Positions 7,813 through 16,120 of a stretch of DNA of 64,000 nucleotides are shown in pieces (within the stretch, counting starts at the first letter, position 1; the number at the start of each line of letters is the position of its first letter). The notes under the pieces are model-generated. The model was not told where the DNA came from and made no database searches. It saw nothing but the letters and a program-made list of their open reading frames with translations. Made by a program: the position numbers and the translations under genes. The DNA lies in assembly GCF_001677475.2 (NCBI RefSeq), contig NZ_CP015229.1; one strand, given 5' to 3'. The stretch comes from Escherichia coli. GTDB lineage: Bacteria; Pseudomonadota; Gammaproteobacteria; Enterobacterales; Enterobacteriaceae.

Positions 7813-9246
7813 ATGAAGCAAGGTTTGCAACTCAGGCTTAGCCAACAACTGGCGATGACGCCACAGCTCCAACAGGCAATTCGTCTGTTGCAGTTGTCGA
7901 CGCTGGAACTTCAGCAGGAGCTACAGCAGGCGCTGGAGAGTAATCCGCTGCTTGAGCAAATCGACACTCATGAAGAAATCGACACCCGCGAAACGCAAGA
8001 CAGTGAAACACTGGACACCGCCGACGCGCTCGAACAAAAAGAGATGCCGGAAGAGCTGCCGCTCGATGCCAGCTGGGACACCATTTACACCGCTGGTACA
8101 CCATCCGGCACCAGCGGTGACTACATTGACGACGAGCTGCCGGTATACCAGGGCGAAACGACGCAGACCTTGCAGGATTACCTGATGTGGCAGGTCGAGC
8201 TGACACCGTTTTCCGATACTGACCGCGCTATTGCTACCTCTATCGTCGATGCCGTTGATGACACCGGTTATCTGACTGTACCGCTGGAAGATATTCTCGA
8301 AAGTATGGGCGATGAAGAGATCGACATCGACGAAGTTGAAGCCGTCCTTAAGCGGATCCAACGGTTTGATCCGGTCGGTGTGGCGGCAAAAGATCTGCGT
8401 GACTGCCTGCTGATCCAACTCTCCCAATTCGATAAAACCACGCCGTGGCTGGAAGAGGCCAGACTGATTATTAGCGATCATCTCGATCTGTTAGCCAATC
8501 ACGACTTCCGCACTTTAATGCGCGTCACGCGTCTGAAAGAAGATGTGCTGAAAGAAGCCGTCAATCTGATCCAGTCGCTCGATCCGCGCCCCGGGCAGTC
8601 GATCCAGACTGGCGAACCTGAGTATGTCATTCCAGATGTGCTGGTGCGTAAGCATAACGGTCACTGGACGGTAGAACTCAACAGTGACAGCATTCCGCGT
8701 CTGCAAATCAACCAGCACTACGCCTCGATGTGCAATAACGCGCGCAACGATGGTGACAACCAGTTTATCCGCAGCAATCTGCAGGATGCCAAATGGTTGA
8801 TCAAGAGTCTGGAAAGCCGTAACGATACGCTCCTGCGCGTGAGTCGCTGTATCGTTGAACAGCAGCAAGCCTTCTTTGAGCAAGGTGAAGAATATATGAA
8901 ACCGATGGTACTGGCCGATATCGCCCAGGCTGTCGAAATGCATGAATCGACGATATCTCGCGTGACCACGCAAAAATACCTGCATAGTCCACGAGGCATT
9001 TTTGAACTGAAGTATTTCTTTTCCAGTCACGTCAATACCGAGGGCGGCGGCGAAGCTTCCTCCACGGCGATTCGTGCGCTGGTGAAGAAATTAATCGCGG
9101 CGGAAAACCCAGCGAAACCGTTGAGCGACAGCAAGTTAACCTCTTTGCTGTCGGAACAAGGTATCATGGTGGCACGCCGCACTGTTGCGAAGTACCGAGA
9201 GTCTTTATCCATTCCGCCGTCAAACCAGCGTAAACAGCTCGTTTGA
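7813..9246 (+). CDS. rpoN: RNA polymerase sigma-54 factor
   Basis: ORF track 7813..9246(+), 477 aa; Gln/Leu-rich N-terminus and C-terminal RpoN box ([10 protein letters not shown]). Confidence 0.96.
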
Positions 9247-9268
9247 CCCAACCGATAAGGAAGACACT

Positions 9269-9556
9269 ATGCAGCTCAACATTACCGGAAATAACGTCGA
9301 GATCACCGAGGCACTGCGCGAATTTGTTACAGCCAAATTTGCCAAACTTGAGCAATATTTTGACCGAATCAACCAGGTCTATGTTGTTCTGAAAGTGGAG
9401 AAAGTCACCCACACCTCAGATGCAACACTGCATGTAAACGGTGGTGAAATTCATGCCAGCGCGGAAGGTCAGGACATGTACGCTGCCATTGATGGCTTAA
9501 TTGATAAGCTGGCACGCCAGTTGACCAAACATAAAGATAAACTGAAACAACACTAA
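9269..9556 (+). CDS. hpf: Hpf, ribosome hibernation promoting factor
   Basis: ORF track 9185..9556(+) trimmed to MQLNITGNNVEIT... (95 aa). Confidence 0.93.
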   Translation: MQLNITGNNVEITEALREFVTAKFAKLEQYFDRINQVYVVLKVEKVTHTSDATLHVNGGEIHASAEGQDMYAAIDGLIDKLARQLTKHKDKLKQH

Positions 9557-9673
9557 TTGTCCGGGCAATTAGCATGTGCATGGCGGCCTGTTGTGCGGCA
9601 CAACGGGCCATTTGTACGGTTAATGCTCCGAGCCTGTTCCACTGTTTGAGTGGGCAGGTTCTTAGGTGAATTT

Positions 9674-10165
9674 ATGACAAATAATGATACAACTCTACAG
9701 CTTAGCAGTGTTCTTAACAGGGAATGTACGCGAAGCCGCGTCCACTGTCAGAGCAAAAAACGCGCCCTGGAAATCATCAGCGAGCTGGCGGCGAAACAAC
9801 TTAGCCTGCCGCCTCAGGTGGTTTTTGAAGCTATCCTGACGCGGGAAAAAATGGGCAGTACCGGTATCGGCAATGGTATTGCCATTCCGCATGGCAAACT
9901 GGAAGAAGATACTCTGCGTGCCGTTGGCGTTTTCGTTCAGCTCGAAACGCCTATAGCTTTCGATGCCATCGACAACCAACCGGTGGACTTACTTTTTGCC
10001 CTGCTGGTGCCGGCAGACCAAACTAAAACGCACCTGCATACTCTGTCACTGGTGGCGAAACGTCTGGCGGACAAAACCATCTGCCGCCGTTTACGCGCAG
10101 CCCAGAGCGATGAAGAGCTGTATCAAATCATTACGGATACCGAAGGTACTCCGGATGAAGCGTAG
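9674..10165 (+). CDS. ptsN: PtsN, nitrogen-related PTS EIIA(Ntr)
   Basis: ORF track 9650..10165(+) trimmed to MTNNDTTLQLSS... (163 aa). Confidence 0.93.
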   Translation: MTNNDTTLQLSSVLNRECTRSRVHCQSKKRALEIISELAAKQLSLPPQVVFEAILTREKMGSTGIGNGIAIPHGKLEEDTLRAVGVFVQLETPIAFDAIDNQPVDLLFALLVPADQTKTHLHTLSLVAKRLADKTICRRLRAAQSDEELYQIITDTEGTPDEA

Positions 10166-10210
10166 TTATTCGGTAATGTCTCTTTTAGACGTTGTGAGGA
10201 GAAACAGTAC

Positions 10211-11065
10211 ATGGTACTGATGATCGTCAGCGGACGTTCAGGTTCAGGTAAATCTGTCGCCCTGCGTGCGCTGGAAGATATGGGTTTTTACTGCGTGGAT
10301 AACCTTCCCGTAGTGTTGTTACCCGATCTGGCTCGAACTCTGGCCGATCGCGAGATTTCTGCCGCCGTCAGCATTGATGTTCGTAATATGCCGGAGTCAC
10401 CAGAAATATTCGAACAGGCGATGAGTAACCTGCCTGACGCTTTCTCACCGCAACTCCTGTTCCTGGATGCCGACCGTAATACCTTAATTCGTCGTTACAG
10501 TGACACGCGCCGACTGCATCCGCTTTCCAGCAAAAACCTGTCGCTGGAAAGTGCTATCGACAAAGAAAGCGATTTGCTGGAGCCTCTGCGTTCGCGAGCG
10601 GATCTGATTGTCGATACCTCAGAAATGTCCGTTCACGAGCTGGCTGAAATGCTGCGTACCCGTCTGCTGGGTAAACGTGAACGCGAACTGACAATGGTCT
10701 TTGAGTCTTTCGGCTTCAAACACGGTATCCCTATCGATGCAGATTACGTCTTTGACGTGCGCTTCTTGCCGAACCCGCACTGGGATCCGAAACTGCGTCC
10801 AATGACAGGTCTTGATAAGCCCGTCGCCGCGTTCCTCGACCGCCACACAGAAGTACACAATTTTATCTACCAGACGCGAAGCTATCTTGAGCTATGGTTA
10901 CCTATGCTGGAAACCAACAACCGTAGCTACCTGACGGTTGCCATTGGTTGTACCGGCGGGAAGCACCGTTCGGTGTATATTGCAGAGCAACTGGCAGACT
11001 ACTTCCGCTCGCGCGGTAAAAACGTCCAGTCACGCCATCGTACGCTGGAAAAACGTAAACCATGA
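10211..11065 (+). CDS. rapZ: RapZ (YhbJ), RNase adaptor protein with P-loop
   Basis: ORF track 10211..11065(+), 284 aa; Walker A GRSGSGKS. Confidence 0.94.
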
Positions 11066-11334
11066 CCGTCAAGCAAACTGTTGAAATCACAAACAAGCTG
11101 GGCATGCATGCCCGGCCTGCAATGAAGCTGTTTGAATTAATGCAGGGTTTTGACGCTGAAGTGCTGTTACGTAATGACGAAGGCACCGAGGCTGAAGCCA
11201 ACAGCGTTATTGCACTGCTGATGCTGGATTCTGCCAAAGGACGGCAGATTGAAGTTGAAGCCACCGGTCCACAGGAAGAGGAAGCACTGGCCGCCGTTAT
11301 CGCCCTCTTTAATTCTGGTTTTGATGAAGATTAA
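11062..11334 (+). CDS. npr: NPr, HPr-like phosphocarrier protein
   Basis: ORF track 11062..11334(+), 90 aa; GMHARPA active-site motif; overlaps rapZ stop. Confidence 0.93.
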
Positions 11335-11479
11335 TCTTCATCACTTTGACATTCAAATCCCTTCAAGCTCCCCCGACAATAAGAAAAGCGCGTACTGAAA
11401 TCGTTCTCAATCAACGTCATTTGTACATTTTGTGCGCTTTTCACTTTCAGAAGAACCTTAAGAAAACCTTAAGAGGCAT

Positions 11480-11497
11480 TGTTTAGGTTTTGTTTAA
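11480..11497 (+). promoter_or_regulatory. PhoP box-like direct repeat (TGTTTA-N5-TGTTTA) upstream of yrbL (approximate coordinates)
   Basis: Sequence tgtttaggttttgtttaa read directly; matches the PhoP direct-repeat consensus, and yrbL is a known PhoPQ-regulated gene in E. coli. Confidence 0.6.
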
Positions 11498-11546
11498 GTT
11501 AATCGACCATACTGGAGATCGTCAGAAAATATTTCCAGGAGATGGC

Positions 11547-12179
11547 ATGATTCGCTTATCTGAACAAAGTCCCCTGGGCACCGGAAGACATCGGAAATGT
11601 TATGCGCATCCGGAAGATGCCCAACGCTGTATCAAGATTGTCTACCATCGTGGCGATGGTGGCGATAAAGAGATCCGCCGTGAGTTAAAGTATTACGCGC
11701 ATCTTGGTCGCCGGTTAAAAGACTGGAGTGGAATACCGCGCTATCACGGTACCGTTGAGACGGATTGCGGAACCGGTTATGTCTACGATGTGATTGCAGA
11801 TTTTGACGGCAAGCCCTCCATTACGCTGACCGAATTTGCTGAACAATGCCGTTACGAAGAAGACATTGCACAACTGCGCCAGTTACTGAAACAGCTGAAG
11901 CGTTATTTGCAGGATAACCGTATCGTGACGATGTCGCTGAAGCCGCAGAATATCCTCTGTCACCGCATCAGTGAGTCAGAGGTTATCCCCGTCGTCTGCG
12001 ACAACATTGGTGAAAGCACATTGATTCCACTGGCGACCTGGTCGAAGTGGTGTTGTCTGCGTAAGCAAGAGCGGTTATGGAAACGATTTATCGCCCAACC
12101 GGCGCTGGCTATTGCCCTGCAGAAAGATCTGCAACCTCGTGAAAGCAAAACGCTGGCCCTCACTTCGCGCGAAGCTTAA
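11547..12179 (+). CDS. yrbL: YrbL, PhoP-regulated protein of unknown function
   Basis: ORF track 11490..12179(+) trimmed to [11 protein letters not shown]... (210 aa); synteny between npr and mtgA. Confidence 0.85.
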
Positions 12180-12904
12180 TCCAGCTGGTGTTGTTGCATA
12201 AACGACTCACCGCCTAACTGATACATCTGCCGTAAAATCCACGCCTGACGGCTACGCACGTAGCCCGATGGCGCGGAGACTTTGAAACGAAGTGGATTAG
12301 GTAATACAGCTGCCAGTAATGCAGCTTCCGACCGGGTAAGTTTGCTCGCGGGTTTGTGGAAATAACGTTGTGCCGCAGCTTCGACGCCAAACACACCGTC
12401 GCCAAATTCGGCGATATTCAGGTAAACCGTCAGGATACGCTTTTTGCTCCAGACCGTTTCTATCCCCAGCGTTAATCCGGCTTCTAGCCCTTTTCGAACC
12501 CAGCTACGCCCATCCCATAAAAAGAGATTTTTGGCCGTCTGCTGAGAAATCGTTGATGCACCGCGAATACGGTTTTCATTGCGCTCGTTGTGCGCCAGGG
12601 CTTTCTCAATGGAAGCGACATCAAAGCCCCAGTGCTCAGGAAATTTCTGATCTTCTGCGGCAATCACCGCCAGTCCCATCCACGGCGAGATTTGATCCAT
12701 ACTGACCCAGTCAGAATGTGCCACGTAACGAAAATTGCCATGCAGCCAGGCGCTGACCTGTCGCTCGACCATTACCGCTGAGAAAGGAACAGGCGCAACG
12801 CTAAACAACGCAATGCCCCCGCCCCAGAAAACGGCGAGGACAACCATTAACCGCAGAAGAAAACGGCGAACGAAACTAAACACCGTTAAGCGGCTTTTAC
12901 TCAT
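12176..12904 (-). CDS. mtgA: MtgA, monofunctional peptidoglycan glycosyltransferase
   Basis: ORF track 12176..12904(-), 242 aa; N-terminal TM segment and transglycosylase motifs. Confidence 0.93.
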
Positions 12905-13554
12905 TCAGCCAGAACCAGCACGCGGGAAACCAGCTTATCAATGCCGTTCGCCGCTTCCGCAATGTTCTGTGCCAACATATAAGCTGGTGTAGTGACAATC
13001 TTATTGTCTTCATCAACCACGATATCATCGACAGGACATGGCACATGCTCCGCGCCCATCTCTTCCAGCACTTCTGCGGTATCGATATCAGTACCGATGG
13101 TCAAACGCAGCGGGAAATCGAAAATTTTCGGCAGCATCGCCGGGGCAATACACACAAAACCAAGCGGTTTTCCGGCCTGATGCATCGCTTGTGCCAGCGC
13201 CTTTAATTCACGGTCAACGGTGCATTCGCTACCAAGACTGGCAAAATTGCTTAAATTCTTCGCCGCGCCAAACCCCCCCGGCACAATCAACGCATCCAGT
13301 TCAGCGGCATCGGCCTGGGCCAGAGGACGGATTTCACCGCGCGTTATTCGTGCCGCTTCAATCAGCACATTGCGCGTTTCCGTCATCGCTTCGCCAGTTA
13401 AATGGTTGATAACATCAACCTGCTGCTTATCCGGTGCAAAGCAGACCGCCTGCGCACCGCTGCGTGAAATAGCTAACAACGTCAACACCGCTTCATGAAT
13501 TTCAGAACCGTCATAGACGCCGCATCCGCTCAGAATTACGCCAATTTTCTTCAT
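12901..13554 (-). CDS. elbB: ElbB (YhbL), DJ-1/PfpI-like glyoxalase-family protein
   Basis: ORF track 12901..13563(-) trimmed to [10 protein letters not shown]... (217 aa). Confidence 0.9.
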
Positions 13555-13671
13555 TGTGATCATCCTTTCGCAATTGACTGAAACACATTAATTTTTTTAA
13601 TAAAAATGCTACGCATCACACATTTAACTGATTCATGTAACAAATCATTTAAGTTTTGCTATCTTAACTGC

Positions 13672-13792
13672 GTGCGGCCTGAAAAACAGTGCTGTGCCCT
13701 TGTAACTCATCATAATAATTTACGGCGCAGCCAAGATTTCCCTGGTGTTGGCGCAGTATTCGCGCACCCCGGTCTAGCCGGGGTCATTTTTT
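13672..13792 (+). ncRNA. arcZ: ArcZ (SraH/RyhA) Hfq-dependent small RNA
   Basis: Sequence GTGCGGCCTGAAAAACAGTGCTGTGCCCTTGTAACTCATCATAATAATTTACGGCGCAGCCAAGATTTCCCTGGTGTTGGCGCAGTATTCGCGCACCCCGGTCTAGCCGGGGTCATTTTTT recognised from memory as ArcZ; ends in a GC-rich hairpin plus T-run; convergent with arcB and overlaps its 3' end. Confidence 0.85.
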
Positions 13793-16120
13793 AGTGGCTT
13801 TTGCCACCCACGCTTTCAGTACTTCTACGTCGTGACGCCACTCTTCTTTCATCTCTTCAATCCATTCACCGACGTTATCTTCCCAGGCGGGAAGGTCAGG
13901 AGACTGAATTTGCTGACCCAGCTGTTGCAGATGGCGTAACCCCACTGACCCCGCCGCACCTTTAATTTTATGTCCTTCCTCAACAATGCCTTTTTTATCC
14001 TGCGCCGTCAGATTCGACTCCAGCACGCTGACATAGCCCGGCATCATCTTCTCAAACACCGCTAACCCGTCGGTGATCAGCTTCGGTCCTACAAGTTCGA
14101 GATACTGTTCCAGCATGGGAATATCGAGCAATGCTTCTGATTTACTGTTCTCTTCTGTCGTCACCGTACTCTCCTCATCATCCTGGGTATCCCAGAATTT
14201 CTTGATCATCGCGGTTAGCGCCGGAACAGAAAGCGGCTTACTCAGCACATCATCCATTCCAGCATTGAGGTACTCTTGTTTGTCTTTCAACACGTTAGCG
14301 GTTAAGGCCACCAGCGGCGGTAAATCCTCGCGCGGATAACGCTTCGTCAGTTCACGAGAGATATCCAGCCCGGTCATATCTGGCAACTGAATATCCAGCA
14401 ACACCAGGTCGTATTCGCCCGGTTTAAACATTTCCAGCGCCGCCTTGCCGGTCATGGCGACATCAACGCTGTTACCTAATTTTTCCAGCACAGAGCGTGC
14501 GACAATCACGTTCAGTTCAATATCTTCCACCAGCAGCACATTCAGCGCCGGTAAAGGCATATCGTCTTCATCAAACGCATCATCAACCTCTTCTGCTACC
14601 GACGGTGCGTGGATCGTCAACGTAAAGGTTGAACCTTTGCCCTGTTCGCTGGTAACCGTAATATCGCCGCCCATATTTTTCGCCAGACGACGAGAAACGG
14701 CCAGACCAATACCGGTGCCGGTGGCAGGTTTACCGCCATGACTGTCTTTCACTTGGTAATACATGGCGAAGATTTTATCCAGCTCATCTTGCGGAATGCC
14801 GATACCAGAGTCTTCCACTTCAAAATGCAGCATATCGCCTTCATCGTAGCGCACGCGCACGGTAACCTGGCCTTGCTGGGTGAATTTGACGGCGTTACTG
14901 ATGAGATTCCACAGGATCTGCCGTAAACGCGTCCCGTCGGTAATGACCTGATGCGGTAATGGCAGCGTCGGCTCCAGATTAAAGCGCAATCCTTTCTGTT
15001 GCGCCTGCAATGCGGAGAGATTTTCCAGATCGGCAAGGAAGCTGGTGAAATCAACCGGCTGATTATCAAGCTGGACCTTGCGCCGTTCCATCTTATCCAT
15101 GTCGATAATATCGTTGAAGATATTCCCCAGCGTGACGGCCGAAACATGGATGGTTTTGAGATATTTTTCCTGCTCGGCGGTGAGTTCGGTATCCAGTAGG
15201 ATGCGGCTCAGGCCGACGATACCGTTCAGCGGTGTACGCAATTCGTGACTGATGGTGGAGATAAACGTCGTTTTGTCGCGGCTGGCCCGTTCAAGCGCAT
15301 CCTGATACCGCTTACGCTCGGTAATGTCGCGACCAAAGCCCATCAAACCGTGACGTTTACCCACGCGGTCGTAGTACGGCACTTTACGAATTTCAAAGCA
15401 GGCTTTGCGTCCGTCGGGATAATCCAGCCACTGCTCATAGGTCAGTGACACATTATGACGGAACACTTTTTCATCGGTTTCAATGACTTTCGCAGCGGCT
15501 TCCGGTGAGTAAACATCAGCAGGTTTCAGATGAACCAGTTGTTTTTCGCTTTTTCCGGTCAGCAGCTCCATCGCGCGGTTACAGCCGGAAAACTCTTTAT
15601 CTTCGTTACGATAAAAAACCAGGTCGGGTGAAGCATCAAGGAAGGAACGTAAGAATGAGGATTGCTGCTCGAGCTGAATTTGTGTCTCTTCGCGCTCTTT
15701 GATTTCAATTTTCAGTTGGCCGAAGGTTTCCTGCAGTTCTGCTTCCGCTTTTTCACGAACGGCAATTTCCTGATTTAGCTGGGCAATATTATCTTTTAAC
15801 TGAACGTTGAGGCTCAAATCGCGCTCGCGCATCTCCTCCAGTTTTTGCACCAGCCGTGACAGACGTTGTCGTGACTCCTCCAGTTGCTCGACGACCACCG
15901 ATAGAAAGTAGACCGCCCACGGCGTAATCAGCAAACCAAAGAAGATAGAACGAATAACATCAATGCTTTCGACCTGACCATGCAGCACCATGGTTACCGC
16001 CATTTGTACCACAATGGCAAGAACGACGAGGGCCAGCGCCAGCAACATTGAGAAGCGCACCAGACCTAACTTCATCATCAGGTCAACATAATACTGCGCC
16101 AGCAGACGAATTTGCTTCAT
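13784..16120 (-). CDS. arcB: ArcB, aerobic respiration control sensor histidine kinase
   Basis: ORF track 13784..16120(-), 778 aa; HisKA motif (SHELRTPLN), receiver and HPt domains. Confidence 0.96.
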   Translation of the reverse strand: MKQIRLLAQYYVDLMMKLGLVRFSMLLALALVVLAIVVQMAVTMVLHGQVESIDVIRSIFFGLLITPWAVYFLSVVVEQLEESRQRLSRLVQKLEEMRERDLSLNVQLKDNIAQLNQEIAVREKAEAELQETFGQLKIEIKEREETQIQLEQQSSFLRSFLDASPDLVFYRNEDKEFSGCNRAMELLTGKSEKQLVHLKPADVYSPEAAAKVIETDEKVFRHNVSLTYEQWLDYPDGRKACFEIRKVPYYDRVGKRHGLMGFGRDITERKRYQDALERASRDKTTFISTISHELRTPLNGIVGLSRILLDTELTAEQEKYLKTIHVSAVTLGNIFNDIIDMDKMERRKVQLDNQPVDFTSFLADLENLSALQAQQKGLRFNLEPTLPLPHQVITDGTRLRQILWNLISNAVKFTQQGQVTVRVRYDEGDMLHFEVEDSGIGIPQDELDKIFAMYYQVKDSHGGKPATGTGIGLAVSRRLAKNMGGDITVTSEQGKGSTFTLTIHAPSVAEEVDDAFDEDDMPLPALNVLLVEDIELNVIVARSVLEKLGNSVDVAMTGKAALEMFKPGEYDLVLLDIQLPDMTGLDISRELTKRYPREDLPPLVALTANVLKDKQEYLNAGMDDVLSKPLSVPALTAMIKKFWDTQDDEESTVTTEENSKSEALLDIPMLEQYLELVGPKLITDGLAVFEKMMPGYVSVLESNLTAQDKKGIVEEGHKIKGAAGSVGLRHLQQLGQQIQSPDLPAWEDNVGEWIEEMKEEWRHDVEVLKAWVAKATKK

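Follow-up and report, generated by a model that had tools for sequence, protein, structure and literature searches.

The direct repeat TGTTTAGGTTTTGTTTA (TGTTTA-ggttt-TGTTTA; 11480-11496, + strand), located by reading the sequence and by pattern search in a 64,000-nucleotide stretch of Escherichia coli DNA (hereafter, the window), is the binding site for activation of yrbL by PhoP, the magnesium-sensing regulator. This is already known and ordinary biology: the yrbL PhoP box had been described before, as the initial annotation of the window rightly said in calling it known. That annotation had delimited the repeat as 11480-11497; its start was correct and its end was one A too far, the true end being 11496. 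The form that includes 11497 is the 19-mer tTGTTTAggtttTGTTTAa, which is the form used in the literature. The distance of about 50 bp that had been given between the repeat and the yrbL ATG was accurate, with exactly 50 nt (11497-11546) in between, and the yrbL gene call agreed both with the RefSeq annotation of identical DNA and with a Pfam match (PF10707). The assignment of the repeat to PhoP and of yrbL to the Mg2+/PhoPQ stimulon was borne out by the consensus, the geometry and the Salmonella and Shigella data, which all agree; as an account of the promoter it was incomplete, leaving aside PmrA/BasR, Fur and the alleles of the box. Coordinates of the features are given in Table 1.

Table 1. 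Positions of promoter elements and of the yrbL gene in the window
Feature	Position	Strand	Description
Conserved upstream block	11421-11440	.	TTGTACATTTTGTGCGCTTT, core GTAC-N5-GTGC; about -95 to -75 from the putative start
PmrA/BasR box	11457-11473	+	CTTAAG-aaaac-CTTAAG; 6 bp upstream of the PhoP box; unmentioned by the initial annotation
PhoP box	11480-11496	+	TGTTTA (11480-11485), spacer ggttt, TGTTTA (11491-11496); overlaps the -35 position of the yrbL promoter
-10 hexamer	11508-11513	+	CATACT; 11 nt (11497-11507) past the PhoP box; same hexamer and distance as in Salmonella yrbL (PMC3335776)
Putative start region	11515-11520	+	By transfer from Salmonella S1 mapping
Shine-Dalgarno sequence	11537-11541	+	AGGAG; 5 nt before the ATG; CAGGAG kept in most taxa
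yrbL CDS	11547-12179	+	210 aa plus stop, begins MIRLSEQ; from the ORF list, PF10707 and the RefSeq annotation of identical DNA

The exact pattern TGTTTA-N5-TGTTTA had a single match on both strands of the 64 kb window (0.01 expected), and was matched in 1 of 100 dinucleotide-preserving shuffles. The relaxed pattern (T/G)GTTTA-N5-(T/G)GTTTA, with up to 2 mismatches, had 14 matches in the window against 13.1 expected; hence, only the perfect copy exceeded chance. The published PhoP-box consensus (PMC3335776, PMC5775216) was matched at all 12 of its specified positions (11480-11496), and the repeat was in direct orientation, on the + strand like yrbL.

The hexamer at the -35 position (TAGGTT, 11484-11489) matched TTGACA at 2 of 6 positions, and a consensus scan of 11200-12300 found neither a consensus sigma-70 promoter nor an intrinsic terminator on either strand. 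The absence of a consensus promoter in that scan, together with the poor -35, fits a promoter that depends on an activator whose site takes the place of the -35 hexamer. The box was 11 nt upstream of the -10 and overlapped the poor -35, as in the promoters of architecture I (11-12 nt). Transcription would start at 11515 if the 32-nt leader of Salmonella is transferred to the window, and at about 11519-11520 by the usual 6-7 nt past the -10. In Salmonella yrbL, no more than 2 nt separate the -10 from the S1-mapped start (PMC3335776); so short a gap is unusual, and points to inexact mapping or to a -10 that would be assigned slightly differently. A Dam site (GATC, 11517-11520) was present within the putative start region (11514-11520). 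The start of E. coli yrbL itself was reportedly mapped by S1 by Minagawa et al. (2003), who are said to have placed the box at the -35 region.

Published evidence for PhoP control was available from three organisms. Zwir et al. (2012) listed Salmonella yrbL among the "architecture I" PhoP-activated promoters and predicted it to be class II (PMC3335776). Salmonella yrbL has one DNase-footprinted PhoP box, TCGTTTAGGTTTTGTTTAA, in direct orientation and 11 nt before CATACT, with TAGGTT as the -35 and a leader of 32 nt, and its single S1-mapped start was obtained with the wild type at low Mg2+ and not with the phoP mutant (PMC3335776). A transcription start upstream of the repeat had been named as the observation that would count against a promoter position; in Salmonella, the closest organism with mapped data, the S1-mapped start was downstream of the box (PMC3335776). 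The site predicted in Shigella flexneri, tTGTTTAggtttTGTTTAa, is identical to that of the window, and the promoter fragment was shifted by PhoP-P in EMSA (PMC5775216). Deletion of phoPQ in Shigella decreased yrbL to 0.02 of the wild type, a drop of about 50-fold (PMC5775216), which upheld activation as the direction of regulation. In E. coli, yrbL serves as a reporter of the PhoP regulon and responds to PhoP (PMC13215669), is induced by osmotic upshift via PhoQ/PhoP (PMC5740661), and was one of the genes under PhoP control that were deleted to look for feedback on PhoQ/PhoP signalling in a screen (PMC2789325). The response of the E. coli yrbL reporter to PhoP was weak, early-saturating and noisy (PMC13215669), and a weak and noisy response implies that PhoP is not the sole determinant of yrbL output.

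Comparison with published PhoP sites placed the repeat one base off the footprinted Salmonella yrbL site and found it identical to the Shigella site. The difference from the footprinted site of Salmonella 14028s was a T in the window 19-mer for a C in the first hexamer. The yrbL PhoP boxes of Salmonella Typhimurium, Shigella flexneri and E. coli K-12 belong to the same gene, in npr-yrbL-mtgA synteny, and share CATACT and the 11-nt spacing; there was no substantive difference between the window and the known yrbL PhoP box, and both are the same element. With the other architecture I promoters (mgtA, phoP, slyB, pmrD and orgB) yrbL shares a single direct PhoP box over the -35, about one helical turn before the -10. 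Its spacing of 11 nt, compared with 12 nt in the other architecture I promoters, and the Salmonella start 2 nt past the -10 are both exceptions according to PMC3335776.

In the mechanism proposed for the promoter, PhoQ would phosphorylate PhoP in response to low Mg2+, antimicrobial peptides or osmotic upshift, and a PhoP dimer would bind head-to-tail on the two TGTTTA hexamers, 11 bp or one helical turn apart. The PhoP box would stand in for the missing -35, 11 nt upstream of the CATACT -10, and PhoP as a class II activator would recruit RNA polymerase, with transcription starting a few bases past the -10 and running into yrbL. PmrA/BasR would bind the adjacent CTTAAG-N5-CTTAAG box, 6 bp upstream, and repress; we infer this way of repression for yrbL. 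Fur would also act on the yrbL promoter, as indicated by the ChIP-seq literature. Taken as a whole, this mechanism, in which a PhoP dimer at the -35 position is a class II activator and both Fur and PmrA/BasR (at the adjacent box) temper its output, is highly probable. By analogy with Salmonella and Shigella, the same PhoP mechanism would apply base for base to this E. coli window. A contact of class II, so far shown experimentally for mgtA only, would likewise extend to yrbL by analogy.

The PhoP box was compared across 19 taxa in nine genera. A genome scan with the protein recovered the loci of Escherichia species, Citrobacter and S. arizonae, and a protein search with contig look-ups added S. 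enterica, Siccibacter, Superficieibacter, Pluralibacter, "Erwinia" sp., Enterobacter and Cedecea. The order npr-yrbL-mtgA was kept in all of these loci with the exception of Enterobacter, in which no neighbouring genes were called. Across the 19 taxa the repeat took the form (T/C)(G/A)TT(T/G)A-N5-(T/C)(G/A)TTTA and was always 11 nt before the -10; alignments and the anchored table gave nGTTnA-N5-nnTTTA as the conserved core of the box. The second half-site was CATTTA or TATTTA in the more distant genera. The -10 was CATACT in 16 of the 19 taxa, and CATAAT, AGGAAT or TAGACT in the three most divergent. In the half of the spacer next to npr, substitutions and indels had scrambled the sequence, whereas the promoter half consisted of conserved blocks at fixed spacing. 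The conservation of the repeat and of its spacing independently supports a function for the repeat and an ancestral origin, in the family, of the control of yrbL by PhoP.

Within E. coli, alleles of the box were counted by exact 30-mer searches over it in 5426 complete genomes. The perfect repeat of the window, TGTTTA-GGTTT-TGTTTA, was the majority allele (3233 genomes, 59.6%), and was accompanied by TGTTTA-GATTT-CGTTTA of the CFT073/ST131, B2 type (1195 genomes, 22.0%) and TGTTTA-GGTTT-CGTTTA of the O157:H7 type (845 genomes, 15.6%). The second half-site was thus CGTTTA in at least 2040 of the 5426 genomes (about 38%), the variable positions being 11491 and, in the B2 spacer, 11487 (loci L014, L017 and L018). 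These alleles and the variants of distant genera imply that a perfect repeat is not required. The description of the repeat as perfect held for the window and not for E. coli as a species, in which it is one allele among several. The npr-yrbL intergenic DNA was present in 5425 of the 5426 genomes, and 11400-11560 of the window was identical to K-12 MG1655.

Two further variants of the promoter were observed in the same species. ST131 strain 4993 (L019) had an 11-bp deletion of one AACCTTAAGAA unit, aligned to 11454-11474, with the loss of one PmrA half-site; the deletion brings the upstream block one helical turn closer, was seen in 1 of 5426 genomes, and is either a private variant or an assembly error. 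Strain 2014C-3011 (L016) had CATACA in place of CATACT as the -10, a change at position 11513 by which the usually critical last T is lost, and its yrbL promoter is predicted from the sequence to be weakened.

The PmrA/BasR box lay within a tandem AACCTTAAGA repeat (11454-11463 and 11465-11474). The pattern CTTAAG-N5-CTTAAG was unique in the window, with 0.08 matches expected at up to 1 mismatch, and was nearly invariant across the aligned taxa. A PmrA box has been defined as half1 CTTAAG, 5 bp and half2 XTTAAT (PMC3973317); compared with this head-to-tail definition, half1 of the window was exact, half2 matched at 5 of 6 positions (G for the final T) and the spacer was of 5 bp. In the yrbL promoters of E. 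coli and Salmonella, a distance of about 24 bp has been described between the PhoP site and the PmrA site, and these promoters are said to form a "bi-fan" motif with pmrD (PMC2681069). Binding of PmrA has been reported (PMC2681069, PMC3335776), as has repression of the E. coli yrbL promoter by PmrA (PMC3335776), and a gene table gives BasR and PhoP as regulators of yrbL (PMC4145685). In iron-adapted E. coli B, yrbL was decreased and basR, eptA and arn were increased (PMC13405929), which is consistent with repression. The pmrD promoter is similar to that of yrbL in having a PhoP box at the -35, a PmrA box upstream and negative PmrA feedback, and differs in the separation of the boxes, which is about 38 bp in pmrD and about 23-24 bp in yrbL. 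Unlike pmrD, yrbL also has a perfect CTTAAG repeat as its PmrA box, a reported Fur ChIP peak and the conserved upstream block.

Fur has been reported to act directly on yrbL, which is in the direct Fur regulon of both MG1655 and CFT073 by a ChIP-seq peak and was increased 5.7-fold in the CFT073 fur mutant (PMC4676285, PMC7157518). The CFT073 Fur ChIP-seq summit is at 3781815 (NC_004431.1), with a peak of 72 compared with hundreds to thousands at classical targets (PMC7157518 supplement). This summit maps 129 nt upstream of the ATG, corresponding to about 11418 in the window, and the left end of the conserved block follows about 3 bp further downstream. Searches of 11300-11620 with the Fur box GATAATGATAATCATTATC or the 7-1-7 motif gave at best 11 of 19 matching positions, and none of the best matches was at the conserved block. 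Either the Fur site at yrbL is non-canonical or the effect of Fur is partly indirect.

Both regulators offer alternative readings of the repeat. The region of the repeat could also or mainly be a second PmrA/BasR site, TTTAGG-ttttg-TTTAAG (11482-11498), which shares 15 bp with the 17-bp PhoP box and at which PmrA would compete directly with PhoP. This site matches YTTAAK-N5-YTTAAK at 11 of 12 positions and forms with the upstream PmrA box a 19-nt inverted repeat that is 79% complementary; competition would also agree with the reported repression of yrbL by PmrA and with the fall of yrbL when basR rises (PMC13405929). However, the half-site TTTAGG strays from the TTAA core, and in Salmonella it is PhoP, not PmrA, that footprints the repeat (PMC3335776). 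The AG past the second hexamer is well conserved, as a PmrA site would have it, but other PhoP boxes, too, are commonly followed by A or AG (PMC3335776), and the conservation of these bases does not discriminate. Because the separation of about 24 bp given in the literature fits the upstream box (23 bp from start to start), a second PmrA site at the repeat is a minor rival and was considered unlikely.

Still less likely, and given little weight, was that the repeat belongs to a Fur operator with iron, not Mg2+, as the main signal. The inclusion of yrbL in the direct Fur regulon of both strains is in agreement with it, and of the four equal-best matches to the 19-bp Fur consensus in the intergenic region, one (11486-11504, minus strand, 11 of 19) extends over the second half-site, but that score is weak and is equalled at three other positions. 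The CFT073 ChIP summit is moreover about 70-80 bp upstream of the repeat, the peak of 72 is low, and the effect of Fur could be exerted partly indirectly, through Fe3+ acting on BasS/BasR. That the repeat is a T-rich direct repeat arisen by chance, with no regulatory role, was given next to no credence. About one exact TGTTTA-N5-TGTTTA is to be expected per 4.6-Mb genome (extrapolating 0.01 per 64 kb), and the window's relaxed matches to the PhoP box were as numerous as chance predicts; yet the position of the repeat and its spacing to the -10 were kept in 19 taxa while the neighbouring DNA was not, and binding and expression data have been published for identical and near-identical sites.

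Activation by PhoP at the repeat, the preferred reading, leaves the conserved block upstream of the PmrA box to be accounted for. The block was invariant at all but 2 positions in 12 Escherichia, Citrobacter and Salmonella sequences, its core was present in 17 of the 19 taxa, in each case with 33-35 nt between it and the PmrA box downstream, and it was more conserved than the PhoP box. Several known motifs were compared with it. An RstA box (tandem TACA, TACATNTNGTTACA; definition from PMC4117788) was rejected, as only the first TACA was present and the second was invariantly GCGC or GCTC; the match of 8 of 12 positions at the block was equalled at an unrelated position in the region. A canonical Fur box was also rejected, with at most 11 of 19 positions matched in the region and none of these matches at the block. 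Scans with the marbox, CRP, FNR and ArcA consensus sequences gave no convincing match at the block. Fis binds a degenerate consensus, GNNYRNNWNNYRNNC. Positions 11423-11437 matched GNNYRNNWNNYRNNC, a pattern with 114 matches in the window and 142 expected by chance, and several orthologous blocks broke its outer G or C.

Other readings of the block found no support, and those as a hairpin arm or as a small ORF were rejected. Neither a sigma-70 promoter nor an intrinsic terminator was found there in the scan, and the candidate -10s nearby were not conserved on inspection by hand. In E. coli, GAAAAGCGC (11383-11391) can pair with GCGCTTTTC (11434-11442; z = -2.3), which would make the block the 3' half of an npr terminator hairpin; the 5' partner was not conserved, and several genera had a separate canonical terminator upstream. 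A small ORF over the block (46 aa, TTG start, 11346-11486) was interrupted by stop codons in close relatives. No further copies of the block motif beyond chance were found in the window. Judged from its conservation, the block TTGTACATTTnGTGCnCTTT is tentatively proposed as the binding site of a third yrbL regulator, a possibility that we hold to be rather less probable than its opposite. Such a regulator might be Fur, through a non-canonical contact, or the factor behind the reported O2-dependent, Fur-independent variation in yrbL. If any part of the present analysis is new, it would be the upstream block.

The gene controlled by the promoter encodes a product that matched Pfam PF10707 (YrbL-PhoP_reg, "PhoP regulatory network protein YrbL") with E = 2e-67, and lies in the order rpoN-hpf-ptsN-rapZ-npr / yrbL / mtgA-elbB-arcB (RefSeq annotation of identical DNA). 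The yrbL (+) and mtgA (-) genes are convergent, with stop codons overlapping by 4 bp (12176-12179) and no terminator-like site between them. The ArcZ sRNA gene was located between elbB and arcB (13672-13779, +; Rfam RF00081, 120.8 bits, E = 4.5e-28), and was the only Rfam match over 9000-16000, with none in the npr-yrbL spacer. A perfect 22-bp palindrome, TGATGAAGATTAATCTTCATCA, was centred on the npr stop codon (11322-11343). E. whittamii and two other Escherichia lineages had GACGAAGATTAATCTTCGTC at this place, in which a synonymous T-to-C change was matched by A-to-G on the opposite arm; the palindrome was broken in CFT073, E. albertii and Citrobacter. Such a palindrome could fold into a hairpin in the RNA where npr ends, or else be recognised by a protein. 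A "yrbL consensus elemental pause sequence" also serves as a model of RNA polymerase pausing (PMC11260103).

Homologues of the YrbL family were also found elsewhere. Two non-syntenic metagenome contigs, L027 (1201-1821) and L028 (1201-1797 and 2857-2997), had homologues with 49-53% identity just 3' of dnaE, and L028 bore a second YrbL paralogue. The neighbours were a Wzy_C O-antigen-ligase-like gene in L027 and a glycosyltransferase gene in L028, which hints that the kinase-like YrbL family acts on envelope polysaccharide. A 420-bp contig labelled Tannerella forsythia ATCC 43037 (NZ_JUET01000135.1; L013) encoded the first 129 residues of YrbL with 99% identity to E. coli, and most probably stems from contamination of the assembly with E. 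coli DNA.

The finding of the initial annotation re-identifies a textbook PhoP box and matters little in itself; its value is that of a positive control, in that a response-regulator site and the geometry of its promoter were recognisable from raw sequence. Seen across the taxa compared, the yrbL promoter is a compact and deeply conserved module of three parts, comprising the upstream block, the PmrA box, and the PhoP box with its -10. The Fur ChIP signal reported for this promoter has no recognisable Fur box and falls beside the conserved block. If the block is indeed the site of a third regulator, the yrbL promoter would bring together three or more envelope and metal signals. A full list of the inputs to yrbL could help to guess the function of YrbL, a kinase-like protein without a known function.
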